From a bacterium (GTDB taxonomy: Bacteria; Desulfobacterota; Desulfuromonadia; Desulfuromonadales; JAAYDE01): a stretch of 39,314 bases of DNA. The position numbers were made by a program, and so were the translations under genes. The notes beneath the pieces were generated by a model that worked only from the letters and a program-made list of their open reading frames with translations, was not told the DNA's origin and did not search any database. Shown piece after piece: positions 20,897 through 39,069 of this stretch. How positions within the stretch are numbered: the first letter of the stretch is position 1; every line of letters starts with the position of its first letter. The stretch spans positions 1 to 39,314 of the forward strand of contig JAILGY010000036.1 in the NCBI GenBank assembly GCA_024696325.1, given 5' to 3'.

Positions 20897-20935
20897 CTTT
20901 TCGGGGCGCAGGCCGGGACGCTTCGCCCCGAAAAG
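20897..20935 (+). promoter_or_regulatory. Intercistronic stem-loop after sbp (mRNA stabiliser or partial terminator)
   Basis: Perfect 12-bp stem CTTTTCGGGGCG (20897-20908) / CGCCCCGAAAAG (20924-20935), 15-nt loop, no clean U-run downstream. Confidence 0.55.
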
Positions 20936-20969
20936 CTCTGTTTGCACCACAACGCCTTAAGGAAAATCC

Positions 20970-21818: not shown

Positions 21819-21828
21819 GGAGGAAATT

Positions 21829-22659: not shown

Positions 22660-22669
22660 GGTAACCGTC

Positions 22670-23743
22670 ATGAACGGATATGCCGCTTATGTGGAACTTC
22701 GGAATATTAACAAGCATTTCAATGACTTTCATGCTTCAAAAGATATCAACATTGCTATTCCCAAAGGAAGGCTGGTCGCGTTGCTCGGTCCCTCCGGCAG
22801 TGGAAAAACTACAATTTTGCGCATGATTGCCGGACTGGAGCAGCCGGATTCCGGCGAGATTCTCATTGACGGTCAGGTGGTCAACGATGTGCCCGGCAGT
22901 GAGCGGGGTATTGGCTTCGTCTTCCAGAACTATGCATTGTTCCGCTCCATGACGGTCTTTGAAAACATCGCCTTCGGTTTGCGGGTGAAGAAGGCGCCGG
23001 AAAACATCATCCAGGAGCGGGTGGCCGAATTGCTTGCGCTCATCGACTGCAAGGGTCTGGAAAAACGTTATCCCAGCCAGCTCTCCGGCGGCCAGCGCCA
23101 ACGCGTGGCCTTTGCAAGGGCACTGGCGCCCAATCCCCAGATTCTGCTTCTGGACGAGCCCTTTGCCGCCATTGATGCCAAAGTCCGGCTGGAATTACGT
23201 ACCTGGCTGCGGGAGATGATCACAAGACTGCACATTACCAGCATTTTCGTCACTCATGATCAGGACGAGGCCATTGAGGTAGCAGACGAGATCGTCGTGA
23301 CCAACCAGGGACGGGTGGAGCAGTCCGGTTCGCCGCAGGAGCTGTATGCCCGTCCGGCCACATCCTTTGTTGCACGTTTCATTGGCAACTCCATTCTGGT
23401 GAAAAATTACGAACGTTTTCACCATTTTGATCGGCGTGGCGCGGACACGGAGGCCATTCTCCGGCCGGAGTTCGTTGGTATCTTCAAGAAGGGTGAAAAT
23501 CTCCAGTATTCGAGTTCCGCCGAGGAAGGCGTGGTGGAAGACATCATTTTCCGGGGCAGCAGCCTGGAAATTCGCGTGCGCCTGCACGGCAATCTGCTAT
23601 CCGCTCTTCGCAGCATCAACGAGCCGACCATCCAGGTGGGCGAAACGGTGGACGTATTCATCTATCGGCTGTTCGTCATCGACGGCAGCACTGTAACGCT
23701 GGCGCACAACCAGTCGCTGGCGCGGGAAAGCGTGGTGATCTGA
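22670..23743 (+). CDS. cysA: Sulfate ABC transporter ATP-binding protein CysA
   Basis: 357 aa. Walker A GPSGSGKTT, signature LSGGQRQRVA, Walker B LLLDEPF, plus a C-terminal TOBE-like regulatory domain. Confidence 0.9.
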   Translation: MNGYAAYVELRNINKHFNDFHASKDINIAIPKGRLVALLGPSGSGKTTILRMIAGLEQPDSGEILIDGQVVNDVPGSERGIGFVFQNYALFRSMTVFENIAFGLRVKKAPENIIQERVAELLALIDCKGLEKRYPSQLSGGQRQRVAFARALAPNPQILLLDEPFAAIDAKVRLELRTWLREMITRLHITSIFVTHDQDEAIEVADEIVVTNQGRVEQSGSPQELYARPATSFVARFIGNSILVKNYERFHHFDRRGADTEAILRPEFVGIFKKGENLQYSSSAEEGVVEDIIFRGSSLEIRVRLHGNLLSALRSINEPTIQVGETVDVFIYRLFVIDGSTVTLAHNQSLARESVVI

Positions 23744-23744
23744 A

Positions 23745-25436
23745 ATGATGAAGAAACGGTTTTTGGCAACCGACATACTTGTCGCCGGAGGAGGAACAGC
23801 AGGCTGCTACGCCGCTATTACCGCGGCGCGGCGTTCTCCGGATATCGGCATTCTGATTGTGGAAAAGGCGAATGTGGAGCGTTCCGGCTGCCTGGCTGCC
23901 GGGGTAAACGCACTGAACGCCTACATTACGGAGGGGCAGAGCGTTCGGGACTATCTGGAATTCGTCCGCCAGGACGCGGAAAAGATTATACGCGATGACC
24001 TCGTCCTCACCATGGCGGAGCGTTTCAACGAAACTGCCGCAGATCTGGAACGCATGGGGCTGGTGATCCAGAAGGACAAAAACGGAAACTATGCCGCCCG
24101 TGGCCGGCACAACATCCGGATCAATGGAGAAAACATCAAGCCCATACTGGCCGCTGAAACACGGCGTCATGGGAACATCCGTATCCTGAACCATGTTAAC
24201 CTGACGGAGCTCCTGACCTGGGACGGCCGCGTGATAGGCGCGGCGGGTTTTTCCGTAACGGACGAAACCGCCTATGCCATTTTTGCGCGAGCGGTGATCA
24301 TGGCCACCGGAGGAGCAGCGGGATTGTACCGTCCCAACAACCCCGGTTTCTCCCGGCACAAGATGTGGTACCCGCCTTTTAACACCGGGGCGGGTTACGC
24401 CATGGGCATCAGGGCTGGGGCGGAAATGACCAGCTTCGAGATGCGCTTTGTCGCCCAGCGCTGCAAGGATACCATCGCCCCGACAGGCACCATTGCCCTA
24501 GGAGCCGGTGCGCGGGAAATAAACGCGCTGGGCGAGATATTTGAGACACGTTACGGACTTTCCACCTCAGGCCGGGCTTATGGAGCAGCCAATGAGGTCC
24601 GGGAAGGACGCGGACCCTGTTTTCTACGCACGCAGGGCATCACCCCCAAACAGGATAATGATCTGTTGAAAGCCTACCTTAACATGGCTCCCGCACAAAC
24701 GTTGAAATGGATCGAAAGCGGAAAGCTGCCGTCCGGGTACAACGTGGAGGTGGAAGGTACGGAGCCCTACATCGTCGGCGGACATACTGGAAGCGGATAC
24801 TGGGTAGACACGGCACGGCGCACCACCCTTCCCGGTCTGTACGCAGCCGGCGACGTATCCGGCGGCGCACCGAAAAAGTTCGTCACCGGTGCTCTGGCCG
24901 AGGGTGCCATAGCGGCCGAGACGGCACTGGCTGATCTGAAAGTCCTGCCCGATGTTCCGGAACTCGCATTTGCGGAACAGGCAAACACGGTCTTTGCCGA
25001 ATATGAAACGCATCTTGCCCCTTTGGATAAAAAGACACTTTTCGACATATCCGCCCTGGAGGAAGCCATGCAGAAAATCATGGACGAATATGCCGGAGGC
25101 ATCCGCACCGGGTACCGCTACAACGAAAACCAGCTTTCCGTGGCGGAGGAGCGAATAGCATCACTGGCCGGGCTGGTTGAAAATCTGCGCGCCGAAGATG
25201 GAGACGGACTTCTCCGCATCTATGAACTCACCGAGCGCCTTACGGTTTGCCGGACACTGCTGGCCCACATGCGGGAGCGGAAAGAAACCCGCTGGCCGGG
25301 TTTCGGCATCCACACCGGTTACCCCAATGTGGACGAATGGCAGGAAAACTACGTCAACTCAAAACTCACGGACGGCCGTATAGAAGTTTTCCGCCGGGAG
25401 CTGGTCGGGGAGGACAACTATGAGCATACGCATTGA
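23745..25436 (+). CDS. AprA-like FAD flavoprotein (adenylylsulfate reductase alpha-subunit / fumarate reductase flavoprotein superfamily)
   Basis: 563 aa. N-terminal FAD dinucleotide fold (DILVAGGGTAGCYAA). AprA-like segments (GLYAAGDVSGG, PYIVGGHTGSGYW). Lies between cysA and cysD. Confidence 0.7.
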   Translation: MMKKRFLATDILVAGGGTAGCYAAITAARRSPDIGILIVEKANVERSGCLAAGVNALNAYITEGQSVRDYLEFVRQDAEKIIRDDLVLTMAERFNETAADLERMGLVIQKDKNGNYAARGRHNIRINGENIKPILAAETRRHGNIRILNHVNLTELLTWDGRVIGAAGFSVTDETAYAIFARAVIMATGGAAGLYRPNNPGFSRHKMWYPPFNTGAGYAMGIRAGAEMTSFEMRFVAQRCKDTIAPTGTIALGAGAREINALGEIFETRYGLSTSGRAYGAANEVREGRGPCFLRTQGITPKQDNDLLKAYLNMAPAQTLKWIESGKLPSGYNVEVEGTEPYIVGGHTGSGYWVDTARRTTLPGLYAAGDVSGGAPKKFVTGALAEGAIAAETALADLKVLPDVPELAFAEQANTVFAEYETHLAPLDKKTLFDISALEEAMQKIMDEYAGGIRTGYRYNENQLSVAEERIASLAGLVENLRAEDGDGLLRIYELTERLTVCRTLLAHMRERKETRWPGFGIHTGYPNVDEWQENYVNSKLTDGRIEVFRRELVGEDNYEHTH

Positions 25437-25734
25437 CCAGGAAAAATGCGCGGCCTGCGGCCGCTGCCGGGAAATTTGTCCAGGAAATCTCATAAAACGG
25501 GCTGAGAACGGCAAAGTGTTTCTGAAACGGCCGGAGGAGTGCTGGGGCTGCGCCTCATGCCTTAAAGAATGTGTCCACGGTGCCATTGCCTACTTCCTCG
25601 GAGCGGACATCGGCGGACGCGGGAGCCTCATGCGGACAAAGCGCGAGGGGGATGTCACCGACTGGATCATCACCCTTCCGGAAGGGAAAACCGTCACCAT
25701 CTCGGTCAACAGGCGCAACGCCAACGAATATTAG
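25420..25734 (+). CDS. Small 2x[4Fe-4S] ferredoxin (AprB-like partner of the flavoprotein)
   Basis: 104 aa. [12 protein letters not shown] and [11 protein letters not shown] motifs. The start overlaps the flavoprotein gene by 17 nt. Confidence 0.7.
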
Positions 25735-25747
25735 GAGGCATAAAGAC

Positions 25748-26650
25748 ATGCGGGAATTATCCCATCTCGACAAACTGGAGGCGGAAGCTATTTACATTAT
25801 CCGAGAGGTAGCGGCGGAGTGCGAAAAGCCGGTGATGCTCTACTCCATCGGCAAAGACAGCTCCGTCATGCTGCATCTGGCCAGAAAAGCCTTTTATCCG
25901 GAAAAGCCGCCTTTCCCCTTTTTACATATAGATACAGGATGGAAATTCAGGGAAATGATCACCTTCCGGGATAACATGGCAAAGAGATACGGCCTTGACA
26001 TGCTCGTCTACACCAACGAAGAGGGAGTGCGGCAAGGCATCAACCCATTCGATCATGGCGCTGTTTACACGGATGTGATGAAGACCCAGGCACTCAAACA
26101 GGCACTCACGAAGTACGGCTTCACAGCGGCTTTCGGCGGTGGACGACGAGACGAAGAAAAGTCCCGCGCCAAGGAACGCATTTTTTCTTTCCGCAACACC
26201 GAACAGGCCTGGGATCCGAAAAACCAGCGCCCGGAGATGTGGAAGCTCTACAATACCCGTATCAAAAAAGGTGAAAGCATCCGGGTGTTTCCCATCTCCA
26301 ATTGGACGGAGAAGGATATCTGGCAGTATATCCGGCGTGAGAGCATAGAAATCGTACCGCTGTACTTCGCGGCAAAGCGTCCCGTTGTTCGCCGGGACGG
26401 CAACATCATCATGGTGGACGATGATCGTTTGCCGCTTTTACCCGGTGAGAGGCCGGAGTATCTAAGCGTGCGTTTCCGCACCCTGGGTTGTTACCCGCTG
26501 ACCGGCGGTGTGGAATCGACGGCGGATACACTGGATGCCATTGTCAGAGAAACATTGAGTGCTGTCACGAGCGAACGCACCAGCCGTGTCATAGATCGGG
26601 ATGGCGGCGCAGCCAGCATGGAAAAACGCAAACGGGAGGGATATTTCTGA
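25748..26650 (+). CDS. cysD: Sulfate adenylyltransferase subunit 2 (CysD)
   Basis: CysD N-terminus ([21 protein letters not shown]...[18 protein letters not shown]). AGGAGG RBS before the ATG at 25748. The track ORF start at 25571 is an upstream extension that overlaps the ferredoxin gene. Confidence 0.9.
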
Positions 26651-28248
26651 TGAACGGACTTCTGAAATTCATCACCTGTGGCAGCGTGGATGACGGTAAG
26701 TCCACACTCATCGGGCACATTCTTTACGACACCAAGCTCCTCTATGCCGATCAGGAGCGAGCACTGGAACTGGACAGCCGTGTGGGCTCCCGGGGCGGAG
26801 CGATCGATTACTCCCTGCTTCTGGACGGGCTTATGGCGGAACGCGAACAGGGCATCACCATCGACGTGGCCTACCGTTATTTCACGACAGATCGACGCAG
26901 CTTCATTGTGGCAGACACGCCTGGACATGAGGAATACACCCGCAATATGGCGGTAGGCGCAAGTTTCGCCGATCTGGCGGTTATTCTGGTAGATGCAACG
27001 AAGGGCGTGCTTGTGCAGACGCGCCGTCATGCGCGCATCTGCGCACTCATGGGCATCCGAGCTTTCGTATTCGCTGTAAACAAAATGGATCTGGTAGAGT
27101 ATGACCGCAAACCCTTTGAAAAGATTCAGGCGCAAATAGAGGAACTTGAAAACGAACTGGGGCTGCAGGACGTCAAAATCATCCCGCTCTCCGCCACAAC
27201 AGGGGAGAATTTGACAAAACCGTCAGCTCTCATGGACTGGTACCAGGGCGGACCTTTGCTGAACTGGCTCGAAACGGTGGCAGTGGAACCCGCCGGTCAC
27301 GAGGAGGGATTTTACATGCCCGTCCAGCGGGTATGCCGTCCGGATCATACCTTCCGGGGCTTTCAGGGACAAATCGAAACCGGTGAGATCCGGATCGGAG
27401 ATATGCTGAGCGTTCTGCCCAGCGGCACAAAGGCCGGTGTAAAAAACATACTGGTGGGCGATCAGTCCGTCAGTGCAGCAGGAGAAGGCCAGCCCGTTAC
27501 CATAGAACTGGATACGGAGGTGGACATCTCGCGCGGCAGCGTTCTCGTCAAAGACACGGTTCCGCACACGGCCAGCCATTTCGATGCCACCCTGCTCTGG
27601 ATGGATGACGAGACATTGACCCATTCCCGTGCCCTCTTTATCAAGGCAGGCACCCGGCTCATACCGGCAAAGATTGACAGCATCCGTTACACCGTGGATG
27701 TAAATACCGGTGAACACAGAAATGCCACAAGCCTGAAAAAGAACGAAATCGCCCTGTGCTCCATCTCGCTGTCGTCCCCAATTGTGGTGGACACCTTTTC
27801 CAGCCACCGGACACTGGGCGAACTGATCCTGATTGATCGGATCACCAACGCCACTGCCGCCTGTGGTATCATCGAAACGGTCTTTGATGCCGGTGAACAG
27901 AACGCGGAAAAGATCGGCCCGGAAACGCGGGCGAAATATATGGGCCAGACGCCGTTTCTCATCCTTGCGGACAACATCCACAAAGCCGAGGAAATTGAGC
28001 GGGAACTGCTCTCTCAGGGACTTCACACCATGCAGGTGCGCGAAAGTGGCGAGCATCTCCTTTTCGCCGCGGATCTGCTGCAGCAGGCCGGGATCATCAC
28101 GGTCATCCCTGGAGAGTCTCTGGATGCTCCGACGGAAAAGCGGATCCGGCAGGAACGGCGGCCGGAATTCGTTCTGGATCTTCGGGAAAGTGGACCGGAA
28201 AAGGATCGTCTGCTGTACGAAAATACCGTAAATTATACATACTACTAG
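26650..28248 (+). CDS. cysN: Sulfate adenylyltransferase subunit 1 (CysN GTPase) with a ~115-aa C-terminal extension
   Basis: The start ATG overlaps the cysD TGA (TGATG). GTPase motifs: GSVDDGKST, DTPGHEEY, NKMD. 532 aa, against roughly 475 aa for stand-alone CysN. Confidence 0.9.
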   Translation: MNGLLKFITCGSVDDGKSTLIGHILYDTKLLYADQERALELDSRVGSRGGAIDYSLLLDGLMAEREQGITIDVAYRYFTTDRRSFIVADTPGHEEYTRNMAVGASFADLAVILVDATKGVLVQTRRHARICALMGIRAFVFAVNKMDLVEYDRKPFEKIQAQIEELENELGLQDVKIIPLSATTGENLTKPSALMDWYQGGPLLNWLETVAVEPAGHEEGFYMPVQRVCRPDHTFRGFQGQIETGEIRIGDMLSVLPSGTKAGVKNILVGDQSVSAAGEGQPVTIELDTEVDISRGSVLVKDTVPHTASHFDATLLWMDDETLTHSRALFIKAGTRLIPAKIDSIRYTVDVNTGEHRNATSLKKNEIALCSISLSSPIVVDTFSSHRTLGELILIDRITNATAACGIIETVFDAGEQNAEKIGPETRAKYMGQTPFLILADNIHKAEEIERELLSQGLHTMQVRESGEHLLFAADLLQQAGIITVIPGESLDAPTEKRIRQERRPEFVLDLRESGPEKDRLLYENTVNYTYY

Positions 28249-28262
28249 AAGGAGGATTTCCC

Positions 28263-29123
28263 ATGGCTGTGGACTATGCGGCACTCAAGGCCGGCGGTTT
28301 TATGCGCCAGAAGCAGAAGAACACCTTTTCTCTCCGTCTGCGGGTGGTAGGCGGCACACTGACGGTGGAGCAACTTCAGACCATCGCCGCCGCAGCAAAA
28401 AAATACGGAAAGAACTACGTTCACCTCACTTCACGCCAGGGGGTGGAAATTCCCTTTATCCGGCTTGAAGACATTGAAAACATCAAAAACGACCTTGCCG
28501 CGGGCGGGGTGTCCCCCAGTGTCTGCGGGCCCCGCGTCCGAACGGTAACGGCCTGTCAGGGAGGACAATGCTGCCCCAGCGGCTGCATCGACGCGCTGGC
28601 CATTGCCACCGAGCTGGATCGCCGCTACTTCGGGCGGCAGCTACCCCACAAATTCAAGTTTGGCGTCACCGGATGCCAGAACAACTGCCTCAAGGCCGAG
28701 GAAAACGATCTGGGCGTCAAGGGCGGCATGGCCATCTCCTGGGCGGCGGATGAATGCACTCTCTGCGGTGTATGCGAAAAAGCCTGCCGCCGTGACGCGA
28801 TCTCCATGGGAAATGGCAAGATTGTGCTGGATGCGGGAAAATGCAACCACTGCGGCCGCTGCGTCATGGCCTGCCCCTCCGGAGCCTGGCACGGAAAAAG
28901 CGGTTACCTCGTCTCCTTCGGCGGCACTTTCGGAAATGCCATTCGGAAAGGCAGGGAGCTTCTTCCTCTTGTTGAAGACGAGGAGACATTGTGGCGGATA
29001 GCGGACACCGCCATCGAATATTTTGCCCAAAACGCCCAGCCCGGCGAACGCTTCGCCAAAGTACTGGAGCGTTTGGGATGGGATGATTTCACACGGAAAG
29101 TACGGGAAGCATATCAGGCTTGA
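28263..29123 (+). CDS. Small siroheme/[4Fe-4S] sulfite reductase with an inserted ferredoxin domain (low-molecular-weight assimilatory or AsrC/Dsr-like type)
   Basis: 286 aa. Sulfite/nitrite reductase Cys cluster (TACQGGQCC...GVTGCQNNC). Two inserted CxxCxxCxxxC motifs (CTLCGVCEKAC, CNHCGRCVMACP). GGAGG RBS. Confidence 0.8.
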   Translation: MAVDYAALKAGGFMRQKQKNTFSLRLRVVGGTLTVEQLQTIAAAAKKYGKNYVHLTSRQGVEIPFIRLEDIENIKNDLAAGGVSPSVCGPRVRTVTACQGGQCCPSGCIDALAIATELDRRYFGRQLPHKFKFGVTGCQNNCLKAEENDLGVKGGMAISWAADECTLCGVCEKACRRDAISMGNGKIVLDAGKCNHCGRCVMACPSGAWHGKSGYLVSFGGTFGNAIRKGRELLPLVEDEETLWRIADTAIEYFAQNAQPGERFAKVLERLGWDDFTRKVREAYQA

Positions 29124-29206
29124 CGTGAACCCCCCAAAAAACTTGAAAAGGTGGGAAACTCATCCCGAAGACAGGCGTTCCTAAACGGCAACGGAGAGGA
29201 GTATCA

Positions 29207-30059
29207 ATGTCTTTGCCGGAATTGTCTCCAGAACTGAAACGAAAATTTGCTCGACTCCAGGCATATATCAGAACCCTGAATAGTCTGGTGGTAGCCTGCT
29301 CCGGAGGCGTAGATTCCACTCTCCTGCTTGCGGTGGCCCACGAGGTTCTGGGTGACCGGGTACTGGCTGTCACCGGCGCAGACGTCTCGGTGCCCAGCCG
29401 GGAAGTGGAGTTTGTGCGAACCTTTTGCGCGGCCCGGGGCATCCGGCATGTCATTTGCCCGGTCAATCCGCTGAAGGAAGCGGGCTACCGGCACAACAGT
29501 CCGGACCGCTGTTATTTTTGCAAAAAGATCCTGTTTACTGCGCTGATGGGCATCGCCCGGAAAAAGAGCACATATCGCGGAAGGCTCCAACAGGGATGAC
29601 ACGGGCGATTACCGGCCCGGACTGAGGGCTGCGGCGGAACTGTCGGTCAAAAGTCCGCTCAAGGAGGCGGGACTGGGCAAAGAGGAAATTCGCTTGCTTG
29701 CCAAAGCACTGGGCCTGCCAATCTGGGACAAGCCCGCCTCCGCCTGCCTGGCATCACGTTTCTCCTATGGCGAGGAAATTACCGAAGAAAAATTGCGCTG
29801 CGTCGAGCGCGCCGAACAATTTCTCATGGACAGCGGTTTTCGGCAGGCGCGGGTCAGAATTCACGGGCATCTCGCCAGAATTGAGGTGCCTCGGGAAGAT
29901 ATCGAAAAGCTGGCGGCGGCGGAGATACGTCAGGCTGTCTGCCAAGAATTCCGACGCATCGGTTTTCTGTTCACCGCCTTGGATCTGGAGGGCTACCGCA
30001 CCGGCAGTATGAACGCGGCTCTATCGCGCGAAACACCCGCCGGATTTCCGGGACGTTGA
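29207..30059 (+). pseudogene. larE: LarE-like PP-loop ATP pyrophosphatase / sulfur transferase, interrupted by a +1 frameshift
   Basis: The two track ORFs (29207-29599 and 29694-30059) together form one LarE/TIGR00268-like protein. They carry the PP-loop ACSGGVDS, CYFCKK, DDTGDYRPG and the SACLASRF Cys motif. The reading frames change at the A5 run at 29561-29565. Removing one A gives a continuous ...IARKRAHIAEGSNRDDTGDYRPG.... Confidence 0.7.
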
Positions 30060-30125
30060 CGCTTGACGCAGCTCACAAGGAAAACACGGGCAAAAGCCTC
30101 ATCAATCAAGAAGGGAAAATCAATC

Positions 30126-31127
30126 ATGACAACCTTGCTGCAAGACGTTGAAGAACGCCTGTTTTCCGGCGGAAGCATCGACCGGGATGCAGCTCTGGCG
30201 CTGACCGAATGGCCGGACAAACCTTCCCTCTACCGCCTGGCTGACAAGATCCGCCGCCATTTCATGGGTGACCGCTTCGACGCCTGCGCCATCATCAACG
30301 CCAAAAGCGGCAATTGCATGGAAGACTGCCGCTTCTGCGCCCAGTCGGCCCGGCACCGCACCGAAGCCCCTCATTACGCCTTCATCGACAAGGAGGAGGC
30401 TCTGCGTCTGGCCCGGGACTGCGACGCGCACGGAGTGGAACGTATCGGCCTGGTCACCAGCGGCCGTAAACTGAACGAGCGAACGCTGGCCGACATGGAG
30501 CGGCTTTTCGCCGAAATGGCCAGAAGCACGGGGCTCTATCTCTGCTCCTCGGCCGGACTGCTGGACGAAGCAACCGTCAGCCGCCTCGCCGCGGCCGGGC
30601 TAAAACGTTACCACTGCAATCTGGAGGCCTGCAAAAATTACTTTCCCCAGGTCTGCACCACCCACACTTGGGAGGAAAAGGCAGCCACTCTCAGGCTGGC
30701 GCGCGCACATGGACTGGCGCTTTGCTCCGGCGGCATTATCGGCATGGGCGAGAGCATTGCCGACCGCGTCGATCTGGCTTTGGAGCTGCGGGATTTGGGC
30801 GTCATGTCCATCGCCTTCAACGTGCTCACCCCGATTCCCGGCACACCGCTGGCTCACCTAGAGCCACTTGCCCTGGATGAGGTACTTACCGCGATCGCCG
30901 TGTTCCGCCTGATCAATCCGAAGGCGGTTTTACGCATGTGCGGCGGTCGCCAGCAACTGGGAAAAGATCAGTACCGCTGCTTCACCTCGGGCGCAAACGG
31001 AGCCATTGTAGGCAACTATCTCACCACGAACGGCAACGAACTGGCCGACGATTTGGCCCGTATCAAGGCTTTGGGCTTCACCCTGCCCCGGGAGACAGCC
31101 GGGACGGATCTGAGGCGGACCAGTTAA
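30126..31127 (+). CDS. bioB: Biotin synthase-like radical SAM enzyme (BioB)
   Basis: Radical SAM CMEDCRFC motif. BioB motifs YHCNLE, LCSGGIIGMGE, RMCGGRQ, NYLTT.G. I placed the start at the ATG at 30126 (MTTLLQD...). Confidence 0.85.
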   Translation: MTTLLQDVEERLFSGGSIDRDAALALTEWPDKPSLYRLADKIRRHFMGDRFDACAIINAKSGNCMEDCRFCAQSARHRTEAPHYAFIDKEEALRLARDCDAHGVERIGLVTSGRKLNERTLADMERLFAEMARSTGLYLCSSAGLLDEATVSRLAAAGLKRYHCNLEACKNYFPQVCTTHTWEEKAATLRLARAHGLALCSGGIIGMGESIADRVDLALELRDLGVMSIAFNVLTPIPGTPLAHLEPLALDEVLTAIAVFRLINPKAVLRMCGGRQQLGKDQYRCFTSGANGAIVGNYLTTNGNELADDLARIKALGFTLPRETAGTDLRRTS

Positions 31128-31192
31128 ACGCCTGTTGAATCCCGCCGGCAGTGTGGAAACCCGCAGTTCCTTTTTTACGCGAGGCGACAGCC

Positions 31193-31678
31193 ATGAAAAT
31201 ATGCATCACAGCTCTCCTGGCCTGCGTAGCCCTGTTTTTTCCCGTATCCGCCGTGTCCGCGTTTCCGGCGGATGCCCCCGCCTGGTCACTGGATGCGGCG
31301 GGCAATCTGCATATCCACGCCGGTCAAGTAACGGCCAAGCCCCTGTTCATTCCCCTGAAAGCGGGGGAAACCTCCATGGAAATCATCGCGGTACGCGACG
31401 GAAACGGCGAAATACGGGCAGCCTTCAACACATGCCAGATCTGCAACGGCGCGCCCCGCACCTATTTTGTCCACCAAAGCAAGCTCTTTGCCCCCAAAGG
31501 CTTTGTCTGTCAGAACTGCGGCAACGTGTTTTCCGCCAAGCAGCTCGGCCTGCAAGGCAACGGCTGCCACCCCCTGGCCATACCCAACTTGAGCACCGCT
31601 GTGGAAAACATCATCATTCCCGCAGACGTCCTGATTGTGCACACACCCTTTTTCCGCAACTGGGAAAGAGGACTTTAA
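31193..31678 (+). CDS. Exported DUF2318-like Cys4 (zinc-ribbon/Fe-S-like) protein
   Basis: Start set at the ATG at 31193, which gives a signal peptide (MKICITALLACVALFFPVSAVSA). CQICNG...CQNCGN pair of CxxC motifs plus GCHP. Confidence 0.6.
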   Translation: MKICITALLACVALFFPVSAVSAFPADAPAWSLDAAGNLHIHAGQVTAKPLFIPLKAGETSMEIIAVRDGNGEIRAAFNTCQICNGAPRTYFVHQSKLFAPKGFVCQNCGNVFSAKQLGLQGNGCHPLAIPNLSTAVENIIIPADVLIVHTPFFRNWERGL

Positions 31679-33048
31679 TGGACAGCAGCACGCTTCGCCT
31701 GAATATTGCGGGCATGACCTGCCCGCTCTGCGAGGAACGGGTGGCAAAGGCACTGTCCGCCGTACCCGGCGTACTGGGGGCAAAAGCCGACTTCGCACGG
31801 GGGGAAGCGGCATTGAAGCTCGCTCCGGAACAAAAAGCGGCACTTCTCATGCCCAAACTCCATCAGGCTGTGCAGGAAGCCGGTTACCGCATCGTCCCGC
31901 AGCCGGGTAAGGAAACCGGGGCTAAATTCGGCCAGGTTTTGGGGCTTCTCGGTATGGCGCTTCTTATCTTTTGGGCAGGCAAGCACTTCATCCCCGCCAA
32001 ACTCACCGGCTTTTTCCCCGGCCCTGGCCAGGCGGCAAGCCTGGGAGCGCTCTTCAGCGTGGGCCTCCTGACTGCCCCTCACTGCCTGGCCATGTGCGGC
32101 GGCATTGCCATGTCCCATGGCCTCTGGGCCGCGAAAAACGCCGGCCAGGGAACCGGTATCCGTCAGGCCGCTCTTTGCTTTCAGGCAGGCAGACTGCTCT
32201 CCTACAGCGCCACAGGTGCAATCGCAGGCCTGCTCGGCCAAACCTTTGCGCTTGAGCCTGTTATGCGAGGAGGCCTCATGCTCCTGGCTGGCGCGTTCAT
32301 GCTGATCATGGCACTGAACATGGTGGGCAGTTTCAGCTTTTTACGGCGTCTGCAATTCCGCCCGCTCCGCCTTCCCGGCCGTCTGGCCGCCAGCTTGCGC
32401 GACCGTTTTTCCGTTTCCGGAACAAGCAGCGGCAGGCATTTCTTTTTGCTTTCCCTCGGCATGGGATTGGCTAACGGGCTTATGCCCTGCGGCCCGCTGC
32501 AGCTTATGCAGGTCTATGCCCTGGGCCTGGATGGAGCGGGCTCAGGGGCCGCGGCCTTGGCCGCTTTCTGTCTTGGCACCATGCCCGCCTTGCTGGGTGT
32601 GAACCTGTTTACCGGCCACCTGAACCAAAAGGAGACAAAACGGATCTTTCAAGCGTCGGCGCTCCTGATCATGGTTTTAGCCCTGGGGATGATGCAAAAC
32701 GGATTAGCCCTGACCGGACGGCAAACATTGGCCGCGTCTCAAAACCCGGAAGGTGCGGTCGCACGGCTTACTGCAACCGGGCAGGAAGTCGTTTCCACTG
32801 CGGATTTTGGCGCTTTTCAGCCCATTGTGGTGCAAAAAGGGCTGCCCGTGATATGGAAGCTGATGATGCCCAAAGACAAACTTGTCGGATGCAACAACGC
32901 CATCCTCGTTCCGATCTTCGGGATAGAGCAGCAACTGACAGCAGGGGAAAATCTTATTTCCTTTACCCCCGGGCAAAGCGGAACTTTTGCCTTTACATGC
33001 TGGATGGGCATGATCACCAGCCGCATCACCGTGGTAGACACCCTGTAA
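31678..33048 (+). CDS. HMA domain / DsbD_2 (TauE-SafE/UreH-like) polytopic membrane domain / C-terminal cupredoxin-like domain fusion protein
   Basis: The start ATG overlaps the upstream TAA (TAATG). N-terminal GMTCPLCE heavy-metal-associated motif. TM region with HCLAMCGG and MPCGPLQ motifs. The C-terminal beta-rich domain ends FAFTCWMGMITSRITVV. Confidence 0.7.
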   Translation: MDSSTLRLNIAGMTCPLCEERVAKALSAVPGVLGAKADFARGEAALKLAPEQKAALLMPKLHQAVQEAGYRIVPQPGKETGAKFGQVLGLLGMALLIFWAGKHFIPAKLTGFFPGPGQAASLGALFSVGLLTAPHCLAMCGGIAMSHGLWAAKNAGQGTGIRQAALCFQAGRLLSYSATGAIAGLLGQTFALEPVMRGGLMLLAGAFMLIMALNMVGSFSFLRRLQFRPLRLPGRLAASLRDRFSVSGTSSGRHFFLLSLGMGLANGLMPCGPLQLMQVYALGLDGAGSGAAALAAFCLGTMPALLGVNLFTGHLNQKETKRIFQASALLIMVLALGMMQNGLALTGRQTLAASQNPEGAVARLTATGQEVVSTADFGAFQPIVVQKGLPVIWKLMMPKDKLVGCNNAILVPIFGIEQQLTAGENLISFTPGQSGTFAFTCWMGMITSRITVVDTL

Positions 33049-33107
33049 TTCTTTTTACAAGAACTTTTTGCGGAATCAAGAGGAAGAGAAAAAACAACCG
33101 CGCGCTG

Positions 33108-33359
33108 TCAGTCTCCCGCTTTCCGCACTATCAGATCATAGGTTCCGTCACCGTTGGCGGAAAGTTTCAAAACCTGATGTCCCTCTTCCTTCATGCTGCG
33201 GGGTACATCCCGTACCGGCTCGCCATCGTTCATACGGACTCGCAGCACCTGCCCTTCCTCAAGTTCCTCCAGAGCGGCTTTCGCCTTGACAAAGGTAACA
33301 GGACACACGACATCCGTGATATCGATCGTGTCATCCACCGTATATTTTTCCTCAGGCAC
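33108..33359 (-). CDS. tusA: TusA/SirA-family sulfurtransferase
   Basis: 83 aa. Conserved DITDVVCPVTFVKAKAAL Cys-Pro motif. GTG start preceded by AGGAGGGAAGG. Confidence 0.8.
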   Translation of the reverse strand: MPEEKYTVDDTIDITDVVCPVTFVKAKAALEELEEGQVLRVRMNDGEPVRDVPRSMKEEGHQVLKLSANGDGTYDLIVRKAGD

Positions 33360-33376
33360 TTTCCTTCCCTCCTGTT

Positions 33377-33796
33377 TTAATCAACCAGTACCAGTTCCTC
33401 TTTTCTTACCATGTCGCCTTCGATGTGGAATGCATTGAGCACCGGGCGTTCCTCGTCCACAAGGGAGAGTATCAGATACGTCGCCTTCGAATCATAGGCG
33501 AGACGTCTGTCCTCCTCCGAGGGCCTTGCGGGAGAAGCCGGATGGGAATGCCAGTTGCCGATCGGTCTGATGCCCAGAGCCCTCATATCTTTAACCGCCC
33601 GCAGCTGTTCTTTGGGATCAAGCGTGAAATGATCAGAGGAATCATCAAGATTGGTCAGCAAATAGACCTTTCTGATTTCCCGTACTCCGTCCGCCGTTTC
33701 AACACCCCCGACTAGTCCGCAGACCTCCTTGGGCGCGCATTTTACGGCATGCGCAAGAATGGTCCCGTAGTCGGCGCTTTTCATAGTGATCCGCAT
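33377..33796 (-). CDS. JAMM/MPN+ (Mov34) metalloprotease, Mec+/HcyD/QbsD-like
   Basis: EVCGLVGG plus HSHPASPARPSEED (the HxHx7Sx2D JAMM motif). I placed the start at the ATG at 33796, which is preceded by GGAGG; the longer track ORF overlaps the thiF-like gene. Confidence 0.8.
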   Translation of the reverse strand: MRITMKSADYGTILAHAVKCAPKEVCGLVGGVETADGVREIRKVYLLTNLDDSSDHFTLDPKEQLRAVKDMRALGIRPIGNWHSHPASPARPSEEDRRLAYDSKATYLILSLVDEERPVLNAFHIEGDMVRKEELVLVD

Positions 33797-33812
33797 CTTG
33801 AGCCTCCCCGCC

Positions 33813-34628
33813 TCAGGTCCCGGGCCGCCACTCGCAGGCCGGTTGTTCATAGTCGGCAAGTTCCCTGATTTCGGGCTCGTCCGCGCAGACGGCGCACCCC
33901 TTTCCCCGTGCCGGCAGCTTGACCTTGCGGAAGTTCATCTGGAGGGCATCGTAGGTCAGAAGATAACCGGTGAGCAATTCCCCCACGCCGCAGATATACT
34001 TGACCGCCTCCATGGCCTGCAATGAGCCGATCACGCCGCCCATCGCGCCAATCACGCCCGCTTCCTTGCACGTGGGAATAACACCCTGCGGCGGCATTTC
34101 CCTGAATATGCACCGGTAACAGGGGCTTTCACCGGGAAGAACCGTCATCAGCTGCCCCTGAAAACGGATAATGCCCGCATGGCTGAAAGGCTTTCTGGCC
34201 ATGACGCAGGCGTCGTTGATCAAAAACTTGGCGGGGAAGTTGTCCGTACCATCCAGGACAAAGTCGTATTCCTCAATAATGTCCAAAATGTTGCCGCTGT
34301 CGACCCGCTCGGGCCAGGTCACGACCGTAATCTCCGGATTGATCGCCAGCATGGTTTCCTTTGCCGAGTCTACCTTGGCCTTGCCAATATCCGGCGTTGT
34401 GTGGATGATCTGGCGCTGCAGGTTGGACAGATCGACCACATCCGCATCCGCTATCCCGATAGTTCCAACCCCCGCCGCCGCAAGATACATCGCGGCAGGC
34501 GCGCCCAAGCCCCCCGCGCCTATGATCAACACCTTGGCATTCAGAAGCTTCTTCTGCCCCTTTGCGCCAATCTCTTTCAGGATGATATGCCGGGAATACC
34601 GCTCCAACTGTTCATTGCTCAAAGCCAT
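33813..34628 (-). CDS. ThiF/MoeB/HesA-family E1-like adenylyltransferase for the sulfur-carrier protein
   Basis: Starts at MALSNEQLERYSRHIIL. Nucleotide loop IIGAGGLGAPAA. CYRC and CAVC zinc motifs. No C-terminal rhodanese domain. The ATG at 34628 is preceded by GGGAGG. Confidence 0.85.
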   Translation of the reverse strand: MALSNEQLERYSRHIILKEIGAKGQKKLLNAKVLIIGAGGLGAPAAMYLAAAGVGTIGIADADVVDLSNLQRQIIHTTPDIGKAKVDSAKETMLAINPEITVVTWPERVDSGNILDIIEEYDFVLDGTDNFPAKFLINDACVMARKPFSHAGIIRFQGQLMTVLPGESPCYRCIFREMPPQGVIPTCKEAGVIGAMGGVIGSLQAMEAVKYICGVGELLTGYLLTYDALQMNFRKVKLPARGKGCAVCADEPEIRELADYEQPACEWRPGT

Positions 34629-34833
34629 GGCATCCGCCTCCCATGAAGTAGAGAAACTCCACCTCGTCGTTCTCCTGCAGAACCGTTGCCGCGAAATCCC
34701 GCCGGTCGACAAAGTTTCCGTTTATGGAAACCGTGACATATTCCGGCGATTCAATACCTTCCTGCTCAATCAGGGCGGGAAGCGCTATTCCTGCCGGAAC
34801 TTCTTTTTCCGTACCAGATACAACAATATGCAT
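34612..34833 (-). CDS. ThiS/MoaD-family sulfur-carrier protein with a C-terminal extension beyond the Gly-Gly motif
   Basis: 73 aa. ThiS-like fold signature (VSINGNFVDRRDFAATVLQENDEVEFLYFMGGG) followed by CHGFEQ. GGAGGGAG RBS. Overlaps the thiF-like start by 17 nt. Confidence 0.75.
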   Translation of the reverse strand: MHIVVSGTEKEVPAGIALPALIEQEGIESPEYVTVSINGNFVDRRDFAATVLQENDEVEFLYFMGGGCHGFEQ

Positions 34834-34850
34834 CTTGATTTTCTCCCTCC

Positions 34851-36083
34851 TCAGGCGTTTGCCCTGGCAATCGCCTGCGCAAAATCATGGGTCAAATCGC
34901 CGATATCCTCAATGCCCGCGCTTACACGCACGGTATCGTCATGAACGCCCGCTGCAAGCCGGCGTTCTTCCGTATTATTCTTGCAGATCGTCGAGGCAGG
35001 ATGCACCGCAATCGTCCGTACATCTCCAATATTGCTGACAATTTTGACATATTCCAGAGCATTCAGGATACGGTAGGCCCGTTCCTTCGAGCCTGCCCGG
35101 AATGTAAGGATGCCGCCGCCCAAACCGCGCAGTTCTTCCTGTACAAGCCCGCCATAGGGATTGCCGGGCAAAGTCGGATAGTTGACATCCCGGACCCCTT
35201 CCATTCCCGCCAGTGCCCGCGCAAGCCGGTCCGCATTGTCACAGATATGCTCCATCCGGATTCCCAGAGTTTCCATCCCGACAACGTTCAGAAACGCGTT
35301 CATGGGTGAGAGGCAGGCGCCCAGGTTTTCCCACAGATCGGTACGCAACCGGACCAGATAGGCCTGTTTCCCGTATTTCCGGAACCTGTTCAATGCGGGG
35401 AACCGGTCAAAATCCCAGTCAAATCTGCCGCCGTCCACTATGACGCCACTGATCGCGTTGCTCCCTCCGTTGATGTATTTCGATCCTGAATGCACCACGA
35501 TATCCGCCCCCAGCGACAGGGGATTGGCAAGAAACGGCGTGGCTGTCGTATTGTCCACAATGAGCGGGATTCCTCTTGCATGTGCAAACGCGGCAACGCT
35601 TTTTACATCCACCACATCCAGCCCCGGATTGCCAATCAGTTCGCAGTAGATCGCCCTTGTCCGCTCCGTCACAAGGTCCCCCAGTTCTTCAACACAAACA
35701 TGGCGCACAAAAGCGACATTGATGCCGAACTGGCGCAGATCCTCGAACAGATCGAAGGTGCCGCCGTACAATCCGCTTCCCGCGACGATCTCGTCACCAG
35801 AGCTCAGTATGTTCAACAGGGACAAGGCCACAGCTGCCATGCCGGAAGCCGTGGCCAACGCGCCGTTTCCTCCCTCCAGTTCGTTCATCCGCTGCTCGAA
35901 AGCGGCCACAGTAGGATTGCCAATCCGGCTGTAGGCAAACCCGGCTTTCCGGTGATGAAACACCTGTTCATGCTCTTCGGCGCTTGCATAGGCAAAGGCA
36001 TTGACCTGACTGACCGGAGGCAGAGTCGCCCCGGCAAAATAACCGGATGCGGCTCCATGCAGCAGCCTGGTATTGAAATGCAT
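34851..36083 (-). CDS. metY: O-acetylhomoserine/O-acetylserine sulfhydrylase family PLP enzyme (MetY/Cys-Met metabolism family)
   Basis: Starts MHFNTRLLHG at the ATG at 36083, after GGGAGG. Motifs YSRIGNPT, SGMAA, HSGSKYINGG (PLP lysine). Confidence 0.85.
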   Translation of the reverse strand: MHFNTRLLHGAASGYFAGATLPPVSQVNAFAYASAEEHEQVFHHRKAGFAYSRIGNPTVAAFEQRMNELEGGNGALATASGMAAVALSLLNILSSGDEIVAGSGLYGGTFDLFEDLRQFGINVAFVRHVCVEELGDLVTERTRAIYCELIGNPGLDVVDVKSVAAFAHARGIPLIVDNTTATPFLANPLSLGADIVVHSGSKYINGGSNAISGVIVDGGRFDWDFDRFPALNRFRKYGKQAYLVRLRTDLWENLGACLSPMNAFLNVVGMETLGIRMEHICDNADRLARALAGMEGVRDVNYPTLPGNPYGGLVQEELRGLGGGILTFRAGSKERAYRILNALEYVKIVSNIGDVRTIAVHPASTICKNNTEERRLAAGVHDDTVRVSAGIEDIGDLTHDFAQAIARANA

Positions 36084-36096
36084 TTCCGCCTCCCTT

Positions 36097-37059
36097 TCAA
36101 ATGACATAGAACCAGCCGGCATCCTCTTCATCCGCCTTCACCCGTTCCACCGGGCGATGCGTGGCATGATTGAACACCAGCTCCTGATTCTTCACGCTGA
36201 CCTTCGTGCCTTCGGGAACCGATTCCGTGATGAAGGTATTGCCGCCGATCACGACATTCCTGCCGATAACCGTATCGCCGCCCAGAATCGAAGCTCCGGA
36301 ATAGATGGTCACGTTATCGCAGATGGTCGGATGCCGTTTCACATTTTTCAGGCGCTGCCCGCCCCTGGTGGAAAGCGCTCCCAGCGTTACTCCCTGATAG
36401 ATTTTGACGTTGTCCCCGATAACCGTGGTTTCCCCAATGACGATGCCCGTCCCATGATCGATGAAAAAATACTTCCCGATGCAGGCTCCGGGATGGATAT
36501 CGATGCCGGTTTCCCGATGCGCATGTTCGGTCATGATGCGGGGAATGAGCGGTATGCCAAGGATATGCAGTTCATGCGCGATTCTATTGACCAGGATTGC
36601 GTACAGGCCGGGATAGGAGAAGATAATCTCATCCTTGTTAAACGCGGCGGGGTCGCCATCATAAGTCGCCTGGATGTCTGTTTCCAGCAATTCCCGTATG
36701 AATGGGATCCGTTCGAGAAAATGGAAGGTCAGCTCAAGTGACAGTTCGTGCAGTTCTTCTTCAGGAAGAGATCTGTATTTTTCCACGCATGGAAGCACAA
36801 TCATAATCTGTTTGGAGAGAACGGAAATGACATCTTCCAAAAGCATCGACGTGTTGTTTTTGGGTGTCAGCACCTTGCATTTCTTGTTGCTGAAAAATCC
36901 TTGGAAAATGATGATTTTCAGGTTTTCCAGCACATCCAGAATCAGTTCCGCGTCCGGATGTTCATGGTTGTTCACCGTGTCAATGTACTTGCTCCCCGCG
37001 TAGCTCCCCATCAGGTTTTCAACAAGACGATCAATTCGACCTGCCAAATCCGTTTTCAT
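36097..37059 (-). CDS. cysE: Serine O-acetyltransferase (hexapeptide-repeat, long N-terminal form)
   Basis: 320 aa. SATase motifs (DPAAFNKDEIIFSYPGLYAILVNRIAHEL, GIDIHPGACIGKYFFIDHGTGIVIGETTVIGDNVKIYQGVTLG). Confidence 0.9.
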   Translation of the reverse strand: MKTDLAGRIDRLVENLMGSYAGSKYIDTVNNHEHPDAELILDVLENLKIIIFQGFFSNKKCKVLTPKNNTSMLLEDVISVLSKQIMIVLPCVEKYRSLPEEELHELSLELTFHFLERIPFIRELLETDIQATYDGDPAAFNKDEIIFSYPGLYAILVNRIAHELHILGIPLIPRIMTEHAHRETGIDIHPGACIGKYFFIDHGTGIVIGETTVIGDNVKIYQGVTLGALSTRGGQRLKNVKRHPTICDNVTIYSGASILGGDTVIGRNVVIGGNTFITESVPEGTKVSVKNQELVFNHATHRPVERVKADEEDAGWFYVI

Positions 37060-37112
37060 ATCCTCTCTCGAATGCTCCTCTCCAAAAGGTTTACCGATAT
37101 TTTTACAATATA

Positions 37113-37129
37113 CCTACTTACATAGTAGG
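37113..37129. promoter_or_regulatory. Palindrome overlapping the predicted cysE-operon transcription start (candidate operator)
   Basis: CCTACT-N5-AGTAGG is a perfect 6-bp inverted repeat. It directly abuts the -10 element. Confidence 0.3.
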
Positions 37130-37158
37130 CTAATATCAGCATGAATTTTCCTTGTCAA
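37130..37158 (-). promoter_or_regulatory. Candidate sigma70 promoter of the cysE-metY-thiS-thiF-JAMM-tusA operon
   Basis: Minus strand reads TTGACA (37158-37153), a 17-nt spacer, then TATTAG (37135-37130), about 70 nt upstream of the cysE ATG. Confidence 0.45.
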
Positions 37159-37323
37159 CAGGAAAGCGGACACCGCCCCCTCAGGAATTGAAGAGTATGT
37201 TGAAGGAAATGTCGGAGAGCGGGGTACGGGGAAGATACAGCCTACAAGGCGATTCTGCCCTCAGGCTGGCTGTGTCCACGAGCCCTTGAGGCAGATTATG
37301 GAAAGCATGCTGGAGATTGACGC

Positions 37324-39069
37324 TTATCCCCAGAAGTGATCGCGCAGGCCGGAAATCCGCGTCACCTGCCGCCGCACCGCCATTTTCAGCGTCTCTTCGG
37401 CAGCGCAGATCGTCACCGCCTCGCGGGCTCGTGTCAGTCCCGTATAGACCAGCTCGCGGGTCAAAAGCCCGGAGGCGGAGTCGGCCAAAACCAGCAGCAC
37501 ACGGTTGAATTCCGAACCCTGGCTTTTATGCACCGTCATGGCGAACACTGTCTCGCAGGCAGGCAGACAAAACGGAGAAAATTTTACAAGCCGGCCTTCG
37601 GCGTTCAAAAAACAGGCCTCGTTGTGAAAGATGACACCGATATCGCCGTTGAACAGATCGAGCTGATAGTTGTTTTCCACTACCATGATCGGCCGGGCAT
37701 GGTAGCGTCCGCCACGGCGCCCGATCAGTGTGCGATTTTGCAGTTCACGCTCCAGCGCGGTGTTGAACGATTCCGCTCCCAGCGTGCCCTGCCGGTGAGA
37801 ACAGAGCACCGCAAAATCCCGGAATCTGTGCAGAAATTCTTCCGGATCGGCACTGGCAAAAAGCCCTTTGTAATAGTCGAGTTCACGCTCCACCACAAGG
37901 GATGCCAGCTCCGTTACCGGGACAGGCGTCATCAGGCGGCAAGGCTCTTCGGAAGACGCTGCCGAAAGCATGTCCCACAGACCAGTCCCCTGCCCGCTTT
38001 TGACCAGACGAGCCGCACGCCCTATGCCTCTTTCACCGTCAAAACGGTAACTCTTTTCCAGCACCACCACTGCATCATCCAGCGGCCGGGCGGCTTCATG
38101 CGCCACAGACGCAAAACCCAGCCGTACAAGCCGGGCCGTAAAATCTGGGGAAAAGATGTTGGAAGTACGCTCGCCGCACAGATCGCCCAGAATGTTCCCC
38201 GCCCCGACCGAGGCCAGCTGATGCTGATCCCCCAGCAAAATCAGACGAGCATCCGGCGGCAGGGCCCGCAGCGTGGCGACCATGAGCTCCAGATCCACCA
38301 TTGATGCCTCATCGATCACCAACAGGTCGCAGGGCAGCGGATTCTTTTCGTTGTGGCGGGGAACTCCGGTAACCGGATTGACGCCCAGAAGCCGGTGCAA
38401 TGTGAGTACCTCTCCGGGAAGCCCGGCCTCGCGCGCCAGACTCTCCCGCAGACGCATCACCGCCTTCCCGGTAAAAGCCGCCAGATACACGCGCAGACCG
38501 GGCCGCTGCGCCGCTATCAGCCGCAAGGTCTGGGAAATAATGGTGGTTTTTCCGGTGCCGGGGCCGCCGGTAATAATGCAAAAACGCCGCAGGGCGGCAA
38601 CCGCAACCGCAAGCAGCTGCGCCTCGTCCAGTGCTTCCAGACTGGCAAGGCCTTCGCGCAAGGCGGCTTCATCCACTTCGACAAAAGAGATCAAAAGCTC
38701 TTCGATGCGGCGGATCAGCTCCCGTTCTCCCTTCCAGAGACGGTTCAAGTAGAGCCTCTCGCCGTCCAGGATCAGCGGACAATGTTCTTCGGGCGCTCCC
38801 ACCACCGAAGTCGCCCGCAACGCCTGCGCCCATGCATGTGGTTCAAGCTTTTCCGGAACACCCAAAGCGCCTGCCTCTTCCGGCGGCAACCAATGCAGCT
38901 CGCGGCAGGCCCGCGGCAGATCAAGACAGACATGGCCACTGGCCTGCCAGCGGCAAACCAGCGCCGCCGCCAGCGCAAGCTCCGGAATCCCGCCGCCCAG
39001 CCGGGTCATCAGATTGGCAAAGTGGCGTTCAAACGGAGAAAAGGCGGTTTCAGCAGGGGCTGCATTCAT
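37324..39069 (-). CDS. recD: Exodeoxyribonuclease V alpha subunit (RecD helicase)
   Basis: 581 aa. Walker A GGPGTGKTT, DEASMVD, LLGDQHQL, and C-terminal TVHKSQGSEF / YTGLTRA motifs typical of RecD. Confidence 0.85.
   Translation of the reverse strand: MNAAPAETAFSPFERHFANLMTRLGGGIPELALAAALVCRWQASGHVCLDLPRACRELHWLPPEEAGALGVPEKLEPHAWAQALRATSVVGAPEEHCPLILDGERLYLNRLWKGERELIRRIEELLISFVEVDEAALREGLASLEALDEAQLLAVAVAALRRFCIITGGPGTGKTTIISQTLRLIAAQRPGLRVYLAAFTGKAVMRLRESLAREAGLPGEVLTLHRLLGVNPVTGVPRHNEKNPLPCDLLVIDEASMVDLELMVATLRALPPDARLILLGDQHQLASVGAGNILGDLCGERTSNIFSPDFTARLVRLGFASVAHEAARPLDDAVVVLEKSYRFDGERGIGRAARLVKSGQGTGLWDMLSAASSEEPCRLMTPVPVTELASLVVERELDYYKGLFASADPEEFLHRFRDFAVLCSHRQGTLGAESFNTALERELQNRTLIGRRGGRYHARPIMVVENNYQLDLFNGDIGVIFHNEACFLNAEGRLVKFSPFCLPACETVFAMTVHKSQGSEFNRVLLVLADSASGLLTRELVYTGLTRAREAVTICAAEETLKMAVRRQVTRISGLRDHFWG

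Follow-up and report, generated by a model that had tools for sequence, protein, structure and literature searches.

A metY operon with a capped ThiS-like carrier, and its probable place in protein-thiocarboxylate homocysteine synthesis

Which amino acid is made, and from which sulfur donor, by an operon that encodes a serine O-acetyltransferase (SAT), a MetY-like enzyme and a ThiS-like sulfur carrier with its partner proteins? The question is raised by contig JAILGY010000036.1, a stretch of 39,314 nucleotides that is referred to here as the window. The minus strand of positions 33108-37059 carries six co-oriented genes in the order SAT, MetY-like, ThiS-like, E1, JAMM and TusA, as given by the listing of open reading frames (ORFs) and direct reading. 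We put at roughly 0.68 the probability that the locus is a protein-thiocarboxylate homocysteine pathway of the HcyS/HcyF/HcyD/MetY type, lying beside the sulfate operon that feeds it, with cysE standing outside the substrate supply of MetY.

The six-gene operon is genuine and well formed; its gene identities, motifs, capped carrier and conserved synteny can all be observed directly. The first gene is cysE (36097..37059), which encodes a long-form SAT of 320 amino acids (Hexapep; TIGR01172 E=3e-47). It is followed by the metY-like gene (34851..36083), whose 410-amino-acid product is a pyridoxal 5'-phosphate (PLP)-dependent enzyme of the O-acetylhomoserine (thiol)-lyase family (PF01053, Cys_Met_Meta_PP, E=1e-102; TIGR01326 E=2e-120), the length being counted from an ATG that is backed by a ribosome-binding site. 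The ThiS-like sulfur carrier (34612..34833) has 73 amino acids and scores 59 bits on TIGR01683, for which the cutoff is 37.45. The start of the gene for the E1-like adenylyltransferase of the ThiF/MoeB family (33813..34628; 271 amino acids; PF00899 E=1e-84) overlaps thiS by 17 nt. A JAMM/MPN+ metalloprotease of 139 amino acids (33377..33796; Prok-JAB E=7e-23) and a TusA/SirA-family sulfurtransferase of 83 amino acids that begins with GTG (33108..33359; PF01206 E=9e-21) complete the operon. From cysE to tusA, the junction spacings are 13, 17, -17 (the overlap), 16 and 17 nt, and each of the six genes is preceded by a GGAGG-type ribosome-binding site. For metY, thiF and the JAMM gene, translation really begins downstream of where the longest ORF would start. 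A first-pass annotation, made from the letters of this DNA, had described six packed, co-oriented genes here. Its coordinates, strand and domain matches all agree with these data, and the identities it gave to the six genes are upheld by Pfam/NCBIfam matches and catalytic motifs.

The MetY-like enzyme carries its PLP lysine, K202, in the motif HSGSK. Its profile matches are to the fold-type I family Cys_Met_Meta_PP, in agreement with the earlier placement of this enzyme in the MetY family and not with CysM or CysK. On TIGR01326 it reaches 402 bits, under the cutoff of 495. Among solved structures in the PDB, it matches 8sf5 at 337 bits, 7kb0 from Thermotoga also at 337 bits and 3ri6 from Wolinella at 284 bits. 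A changed function of the window enzyme was also considered. Just 19 differences, mostly conservative, fall at columns where at least 88% of the distant members of the subfamily agree, and this candidate was set aside as uninformative.

The carrier ends in FMGGG-CHGFEQ, and the TIGR01683 profile stops at G67. From its sequence, the ThiS-like protein appears to be a capped pro-carrier. This is a constant property of its relatives: all 34 complete carriers end in EFLYFMGGG plus 1-7 further residues, the cap being R in 15, Q in seven, CHGFEQ or CHGFDQ in four, and other residues in the rest. A capped GGG needs a processing protease, and the JAMM protein would be that enzyme. Its active site is intact (E24 and H83-S-H85-x7-S93-x2-D96) and is kept in orthologues, so that the HxHx7Sx2D motif recorded in the first-pass annotation is present together with the additional glutamate. 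The best PDB match of the JAMM protein is 2kks (136 bits, annotated as an uncharacterised protein). This structure and the nearest solved carrier, 2k5p/3cwi (annotated as ThiS), are ordinary family members.

The E1 has a ThiF domain and no other. It contains the motifs GAGGLG, CYRC and CAVC, the last two forming two CxxC pairs. Its NCBIfam matches to rhodanese-bearing MoeB/MoeZ models span just the adenylation part of those models; on the MoeZ model NF005902, the alignment takes in positions 14-271 of 392 and no rhodanese match is found. TusA has Cys19 in DVVCPVTF, and the motif DITDV(V/T)CP(V/I)TF is kept in six orthologues.

ThiS and ThiF could in principle be an ordinary thiamine or molybdopterin carrier system that lies beside metY by chance. 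The family models point that way, as ThiS scores above the TIGR01683 cutoff and the E1 above that of the MoeB subfamily model NF004281. The surroundings and the carrier itself do not. Thiamine ThiS/ThiF is accompanied by thiG, thiH/thiO, thiC and thiE, has a free GG and has no JAMM protease, whereas Pfam/NCBIfam scans of the 39-kb window found no thiG, thiH, thiC, thiE, moaE or moaD partner. Other uses of the carrier are unlikely because thiG, thiH, thiC and moaE are missing from the window. A capped GG with a co-encoded JAMM protease and TusA is not a feature of thiamine ThiS, and the synteny with metY and sir is conserved. We regard a chance neighbourhood of this kind as extremely improbable.

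The Wolinella HcyS/HcyF/HcyD/MetY system was reported in 2011 to make homocysteine from a protein thiocarboxylate (Krishnamoorthy & Begley 2011; Tran et al. 2011), and its carrier, HcyS-Ala, is said to need a processing protease. The first-pass annotation had drawn this comparison, and the carrier, E1, JAMM protease, TusA, MetY and sulfate linkage are all matched in the window. The two share a capped-GG carrier, a rhodanese-less E1, a JAMM protease, a stand-alone SirA/TusA and a MetY-family PLP enzyme. They also share the linkage to sulfate uptake, ATP sulfurylase, adenosine 5'-phosphosulfate (APS) or 3'-phosphoadenosine 5'-phosphosulfate (PAPS) reductase and sulfite reductase. The window differs in several respects: its operon is headed by a long-form SAT, its cap has six residues (CHGFEQ) and not one, its module is an operon of its own that converges with the sulfate operon instead of lying inside it, and its host is a Deltaproteobacteria-labelled metagenome-assembled genome (MAG) in which these genes look clostridial. 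The Wolinella MetY takes the carrier thiocarboxylate and not bisulfide (PMC8191291; PMC6271081).

A neighbourhood of this composition is described in row 4e of Table 1 of Iyer, Burroughs & Aravind 2006 (PMC1779556). It comprises a ThiS/MoaD-like protein, a JAB protein, an E1 that "always lacks" the rhodanese and always a SirA, and is also defined by linkage to genes of sulfate transport, activation and reduction. Class 4e is found in Wolinella, Geobacter, Alkaliphilus, Bacillus cereus, Carboxydothermus, Caldicellulosiruptor, Clostridium thermocellum and Desulfitobacterium (PMC1779556). The first-pass annotation had listed three features of the locus as unusual, and two of them are hallmarks of this class because both are part of its definition and both recur in our survey of relatives. 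The first is the E1 without a rhodanese accompanied by a stand-alone TusA, which is present as described but not unusual. The second is convergence on a sulfate-reduction operon; that operon is real and convergent, but it does not abut the module, being about 4 kb and four genes away, and such linkage is again typical of class 4e. The operon belongs to an already described kind of pathway.

A sequence of steps can be proposed in which every chemical step is modelled on the Wolinella reconstitution. The JAMM protease would remove CHGFEQ after GGG from the pro-carrier, and the rhodanese-less E1 would adenylate the exposed carrier glycine. The acyl-adenylate would be converted to the carrier thiocarboxylate (carrier-COSH) by sulfide from the small sulfite reductase or by persulfide delivered through Cys19 of TusA. 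The MetY-like PLP enzyme would then join carrier-COSH to O-acetylhomoserine (OAH). After an S-to-N acyl shift, hydrolysis of the carrier-homocysteine amide by the JAMM protease would yield homocysteine and regenerate the carrier.

Related carrier systems share parts of this logic. In Mycobacterium tuberculosis, the ThiS-fold carrier CysO forms a thiocarboxylate that reacts with an activated amino acid, and an S-to-N shift and release by the JAMM protease Mec+ follow. The earlier comparison to the CysO/CysM/Mec+/MoeZ system holds only loosely. The mycobacterial CysM is a fold-type II enzyme that acts on O-phosphoserine and MoeZ bears a rhodanese, whereas the window encodes a fold-type I MetY-family enzyme, a rhodanese-less E1 and a separate TusA. 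The C-terminus of CysO is a free GG. In the Pseudomonas QbsE/QbsC/QbsD system for thioquinolobactin, the JAMM protease removes residues beyond the carrier GG before activation by the E1. Instead of an amino acid, the Qbs system yields a siderophore thiocarboxylate, and it has neither a MetY nor a link to sulfate assimilation. The archaeal SAMP/UbaA/JAMM1 system also uses a ubiquitin-fold carrier; the window E1 matches the SAMP-activating enzyme model NF047750 at 326 bits and the JAMM protein the desampylase model at 79 bits, both below cutoffs. The SAMP system also conjugates its carrier to proteins; the window offers no evidence of conjugation, and its context is biosynthetic.

Lachnospiraceae, Eubacteriales and Oscillospiraceae hold many members of the MetY subfamily, which are 58-67% identical to the window enzyme. 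Look-ups of exact proteins gave aprA-aprB-cysD-cysN-metY-thiS-thiF-JAMM-sir-tusA as one operon, and in four clostridial relatives (L011-L014) the sulfate genes lie in the same operon as metY-thiS-thiF-JAMM-tusA. A metagenome scan with an alignment of the MetY subfamily returned 80 loci, heavily redundant by species, whose neighbours were scored by a tblastn census. The carrier-linked arrangement, metY-thiS-thiF-JAMM with tusA, is present in about 45 of these 80 loci and usually lies inside aprAB-cysDN-...-sir operons. Immediately upstream of aprA, cysK and an Rrf2 regulator are found in about 12 loci that represent one or two species. In about 35, essentially from one species, MetY is alone.

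Further neighbours of the module are seen in some relatives. In about 20 gut clostridial contigs among the approximately 45 that are carrier-linked, tusA and thiS are separated by a thioredoxin gene, and in four of these contigs the JAMM gene is followed by a thioredoxin reductase gene. Examples are found at 12338-12706 and 14137-15069 of locus L036 and at 12608-12922 of L082; the window is without an equivalent. The thioredoxin may supply reductant for an acyl-persulfide intermediate. In two Lachnospiraceae MAGs, L001 (10024-12540) and L002 (4252-6964), the module adjoins a family 2A (SrpI-like) encapsulin shell and no sulfate genes are nearby. L002 also has a 583-amino-acid cysteine desulfurase and L001 a ThiS-ThiF-rhodanese fusion. 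A persulfide source near the module is expected if TusA relays persulfide.

In a neighbour-joining tree, which is unbootstrapped, the window MetY nests within a clade of mostly carrier-linked MetYs. Several observations weigh against carrier-dependent homocysteine synthesis, and some of them come from the same tree. Stand-alone MetYs also nest inside the carrier-linked clade, and therefore the MetY-like enzyme may also accept free sulfide. The window enzyme is not specifically nearer to the Wolinella MetY (284 bits) than to the sulfide-using Thermotoga MetY (337 bits for 7kb0, the same as for 8sf5), and therefore carrier linkage does not appear to track a single MetY clade. Enzymes of the MetY family often act on both OAH and O-acetylserine (OAS); the name of TIGR01326 includes the two substrates, and the top PDB match, 8sf5, is itself an OAH/OAS sulfhydrylase. 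Neither metX nor metA is found in the window, nor do they occur among the 25 families listed from a Pfam census of 74 distinct neighbours of the related loci, a list below which MetX may have gone unseen. No SAM riboswitch or T-box that would tie the operon to methionine was found with Rfam. Finally, only 13 nt separate cysE from metY.

The nested stand-alone enzymes open an alternative in which MetY uses free sulfide and ThiS, E1, JAMM and TusA serve another role, such as sulfide buffering or storage, cofactor or tRNA sulfur, or SAMP-like conjugation. These MetYs have no carrier within 10 kb and sit inside the clade at 58% identity. The matches of the E1 and the JAMM protein to the archaeal models, though below their cutoffs, and the presence of the sulfur-using bioB and a larE remnant beside the operon fit this alternative as well. 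It is opposed by the adjacency of metY to thiS-thiF-JAMM, which the window shares with many clostridial lineages, and by Wolinella, whose MetY has been shown to take its sulfur from the carrier. No consumer enzyme for another role is conserved in the neighbourhood. We find this alternative very doubtful.

The bifunctionality of the family and the position of cysE bear on a different product. Solved long-form SATs align with residues 9-299 of the window SAT (9u39/6lcn at 234 bits, 3f1x at 228 bits), and both GIDIHPGA and KRHP are there. By structure alignment and motifs, the long N-terminal helical domain, the left-handed beta-helix, the catalytic Asp-His and the Arg-His substrate motif are all in place. 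Its scores fall under the NCBIfam trusted cutoffs, with 160.8 bits on TIGR01172 (210.65) and 144.9 on the EpsC model NF041874 (150). The protein is 64-71% identical to SATs of Ruminococcus, where this family is a stand-alone housekeeping gene. SAT adjoins the module only in the lineage of the window, that is, in the window and in loci L008, L009 and L010. It is adjacent in none of the 80 metagenome loci, nor in the clostridial relatives L001-L002 and L011-L014. Where the window has SAT, relatives have cysK with an Rrf2 regulator, a thioredoxin or nothing. The remaining feature that had been called unusual, a SAT paired with an enzyme of the OAH-sulfhydrylase family, is therefore a real pairing that is limited to these four loci.

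Such a pairing might mean carrier-dependent cysteine synthesis, in which SAT makes OAS, the MetY-like enzyme joins OAS to carrier-COSH and the JAMM protease frees cysteine, either as the sole product or alongside homocysteine. The short cysE-metY spacing within one operon, which is kept in the 93%-identical loci L009 and L010, and the bifunctional OAH/OAS members of the MetY family favor this view. So do the lack of both cysK and cysM in the 39-kb window (Pfam scans of its main ORFs detected no CysK/CysM-type, or PALP, enzyme) and a Cys-rich leader ORF before the partner sulfate operon, which suggests cysteine-responsive control. On the other hand, the window MetY nests among orthologues from loci without SAT, while the cysK-adjacent ones lie elsewhere in the carrier-linked clade. 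The substitutions in the window lineage are mostly conservative, no other locus examined has an adjacent SAT, and the sole reconstituted relative makes homocysteine. Cysteine as a product of the carrier pathway is thus rather unlikely. A more specific version would have the MetY-family enzyme and a translationally coupled SAT recruited in this lineage for cysteine synthesis from OAS and carrier-COSH, with the persulfide of TusA coming straight from the small DsrAB-like sulfite reductase and no free sulfide released. We hold this version to be distinctly unlikely; if true, it would be a fold-type I analogue of the mycobacterial CysO/CysM route.

In the homocysteine pathway that we favor, cysE is read as a co-regulated gene of the cysteine branch and not as the supplier of the MetY substrate. 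It would provide OAS for a CysK-type enzyme encoded elsewhere, or a regulatory signal. Three observations lead to this reading: SAT joins the module only in the lineage of the window, the locus of relatives also includes cysK and an Rrf2 regulator, and elsewhere SATs of this family are encoded by stand-alone housekeeping genes. In some relatives, cysK and the Rrf2 regulator head the metY/carrier locus, and therefore the cysteine and homocysteine branches coexist there.

The partner of the module is an assimilatory sulfate operon on the plus strand (19803-29123), which Pfam/NCBIfam matches resolve into sbp, cysT, cysW, cysA, aprA, aprB, cysD, cysN and a small sulfite reductase gene with a ferredoxin insert. 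The sulfate-binding protein scores 386 bits, AprA 819 (NF005331), CysD 514 and CysN 540, and the sulfite reductase matches NIR_SIR and Fer4. This convergent operon would supply the reduced sulfur of the module. The approximately 4 kb between sir and tusA hold four plus-strand genes: a split larE, bioB, an FtrD-like gene and an HMA-DsbD_2 gene. The larE-type sacrificial sulfur transferase is encoded in two reading frames (29207-29599 and 29694-30059, plus strand) with about 44 model residues missing; a frameshift that made it a pseudogene, or a mistake in the assembly, is the probable cause. The whole block is missing from the 93%-identical L009, which has the same recD-SAT-metY-thiS-thiF-JAMM-tusA order and in which tusA converges straight on sir with a gap of 137 nt. 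In L009, cysD is apparently missing between aprB and cysN, where a 404-nt gap (15589-15993) has no tblastn match; this may disable ATP sulfurylase or may reflect misassembly. Just upstream of the sulfate operon in the window, positions 16993-19120 (plus strand) encode a C-S lyase of the PatB family, whose 446 bits exceed the cutoff, together with a pyridoxamine kinase; the two could be linked to cystathionine/cysteine cleavage and PLP supply.

Regulation of the two operons is suggested by features in their upstream regions. The carrier operon is preceded by recD (37324-39069, minus strand), and the 264-nt gap between recD and cysE contains, by direct reading, a promoter-like TTGACA-17-TATTAG followed by the palindrome CCTACTatgtaAGTAGG (37113..37158, minus strand). 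A scan for consensus promoters did not flag this site. The region is largely kept in L009 and L010; because the palindrome has a degraded arm in L009, it can be called no more than a putative operator. Palindromes of 8-7-8 form occur in both promoter regions, at 19550-19572 (ATACCAAC-N7-GTTGGTAT) and, imperfectly, at 37110-37132 (ATACCTAC-N7-GTAGGCTA). A shared operator, ATACCWAC-N7-GTWGGTAT, which matches the first site and the second with three mismatches, was rejected as evidence. The match is circular because the pattern was derived from those same two sites, and it is degraded in L009. Internal promoters and terminators are at chance level.

Riboswitch or T-box control was likewise considered and rejected. 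Rfam gave nothing at the gathering threshold in the window, nor at E<=10 on 32900-37450. At the gathering threshold, 13 related loci gave only a SAM riboswitch in L003, where it precedes an unrelated MetY of 43% identity, and a flavin mononucleotide (FMN) riboswitch. Before the sulfate operon, a 43-codon ORF with 10 cysteines, MNASFLCRRSCCCCEGPSRRTCCLRCCTVLMCSHTVGQRRMHT, is found at 19594-19755 (plus strand). A ribosome-binding site of its own precedes it, and sbp begins about 50 nt beyond its end. The ORF is directly followed by an 11-bp GC-rich hairpin and a U-run, and the fold z-score of the whole region is unremarkable (-0.79). On sequence grounds, it looks like a candidate cysteine-codon leader-peptide attenuator for the sulfate-assimilation operon. 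In the related loci examined, none of sbp, aprA and cysK was found to be preceded by a Cys-rich leader.

Proteins that cluster with those of the window bear the label "MAG: Deltaproteobacteria bacterium". RecD is at most 48-50% identical to its relatives from other species, which are from Deltaproteobacteria-labelled MAGs and other Gram-negative phyla; the search for RecD relatives gave no clostridial match. SAT, MetY, ThiF and CysD, in contrast, are 65-85% identical to clostridial proteins. The difference between clostridial-like sulfur genes and a non-clostridial RecD and host label therefore suggests horizontal transfer. The simplest reading of these identities is that the sulfur-assimilation and carrier package (19803-37059) was acquired from Clostridia.

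What is unusual at this locus is only the added cysE and the apparent transfer from Clostridia, and the addition of cysE is modest. To the described pathway, the survey adds the capping of every complete carrier, the thioredoxin insertion and the addition of cysE only in the Deltaproteobacteria-labelled lineage. The protein-thiocarboxylate homocysteine route was found by Price et al. 2018 to be missing from MetaCyc and KEGG. It is rarely annotated, and gut and rumen Clostridia commonly carry the module. Recognising the module avoids its mis-annotation as thiamine or molybdopterin genes and false predictions of methionine auxotrophy.

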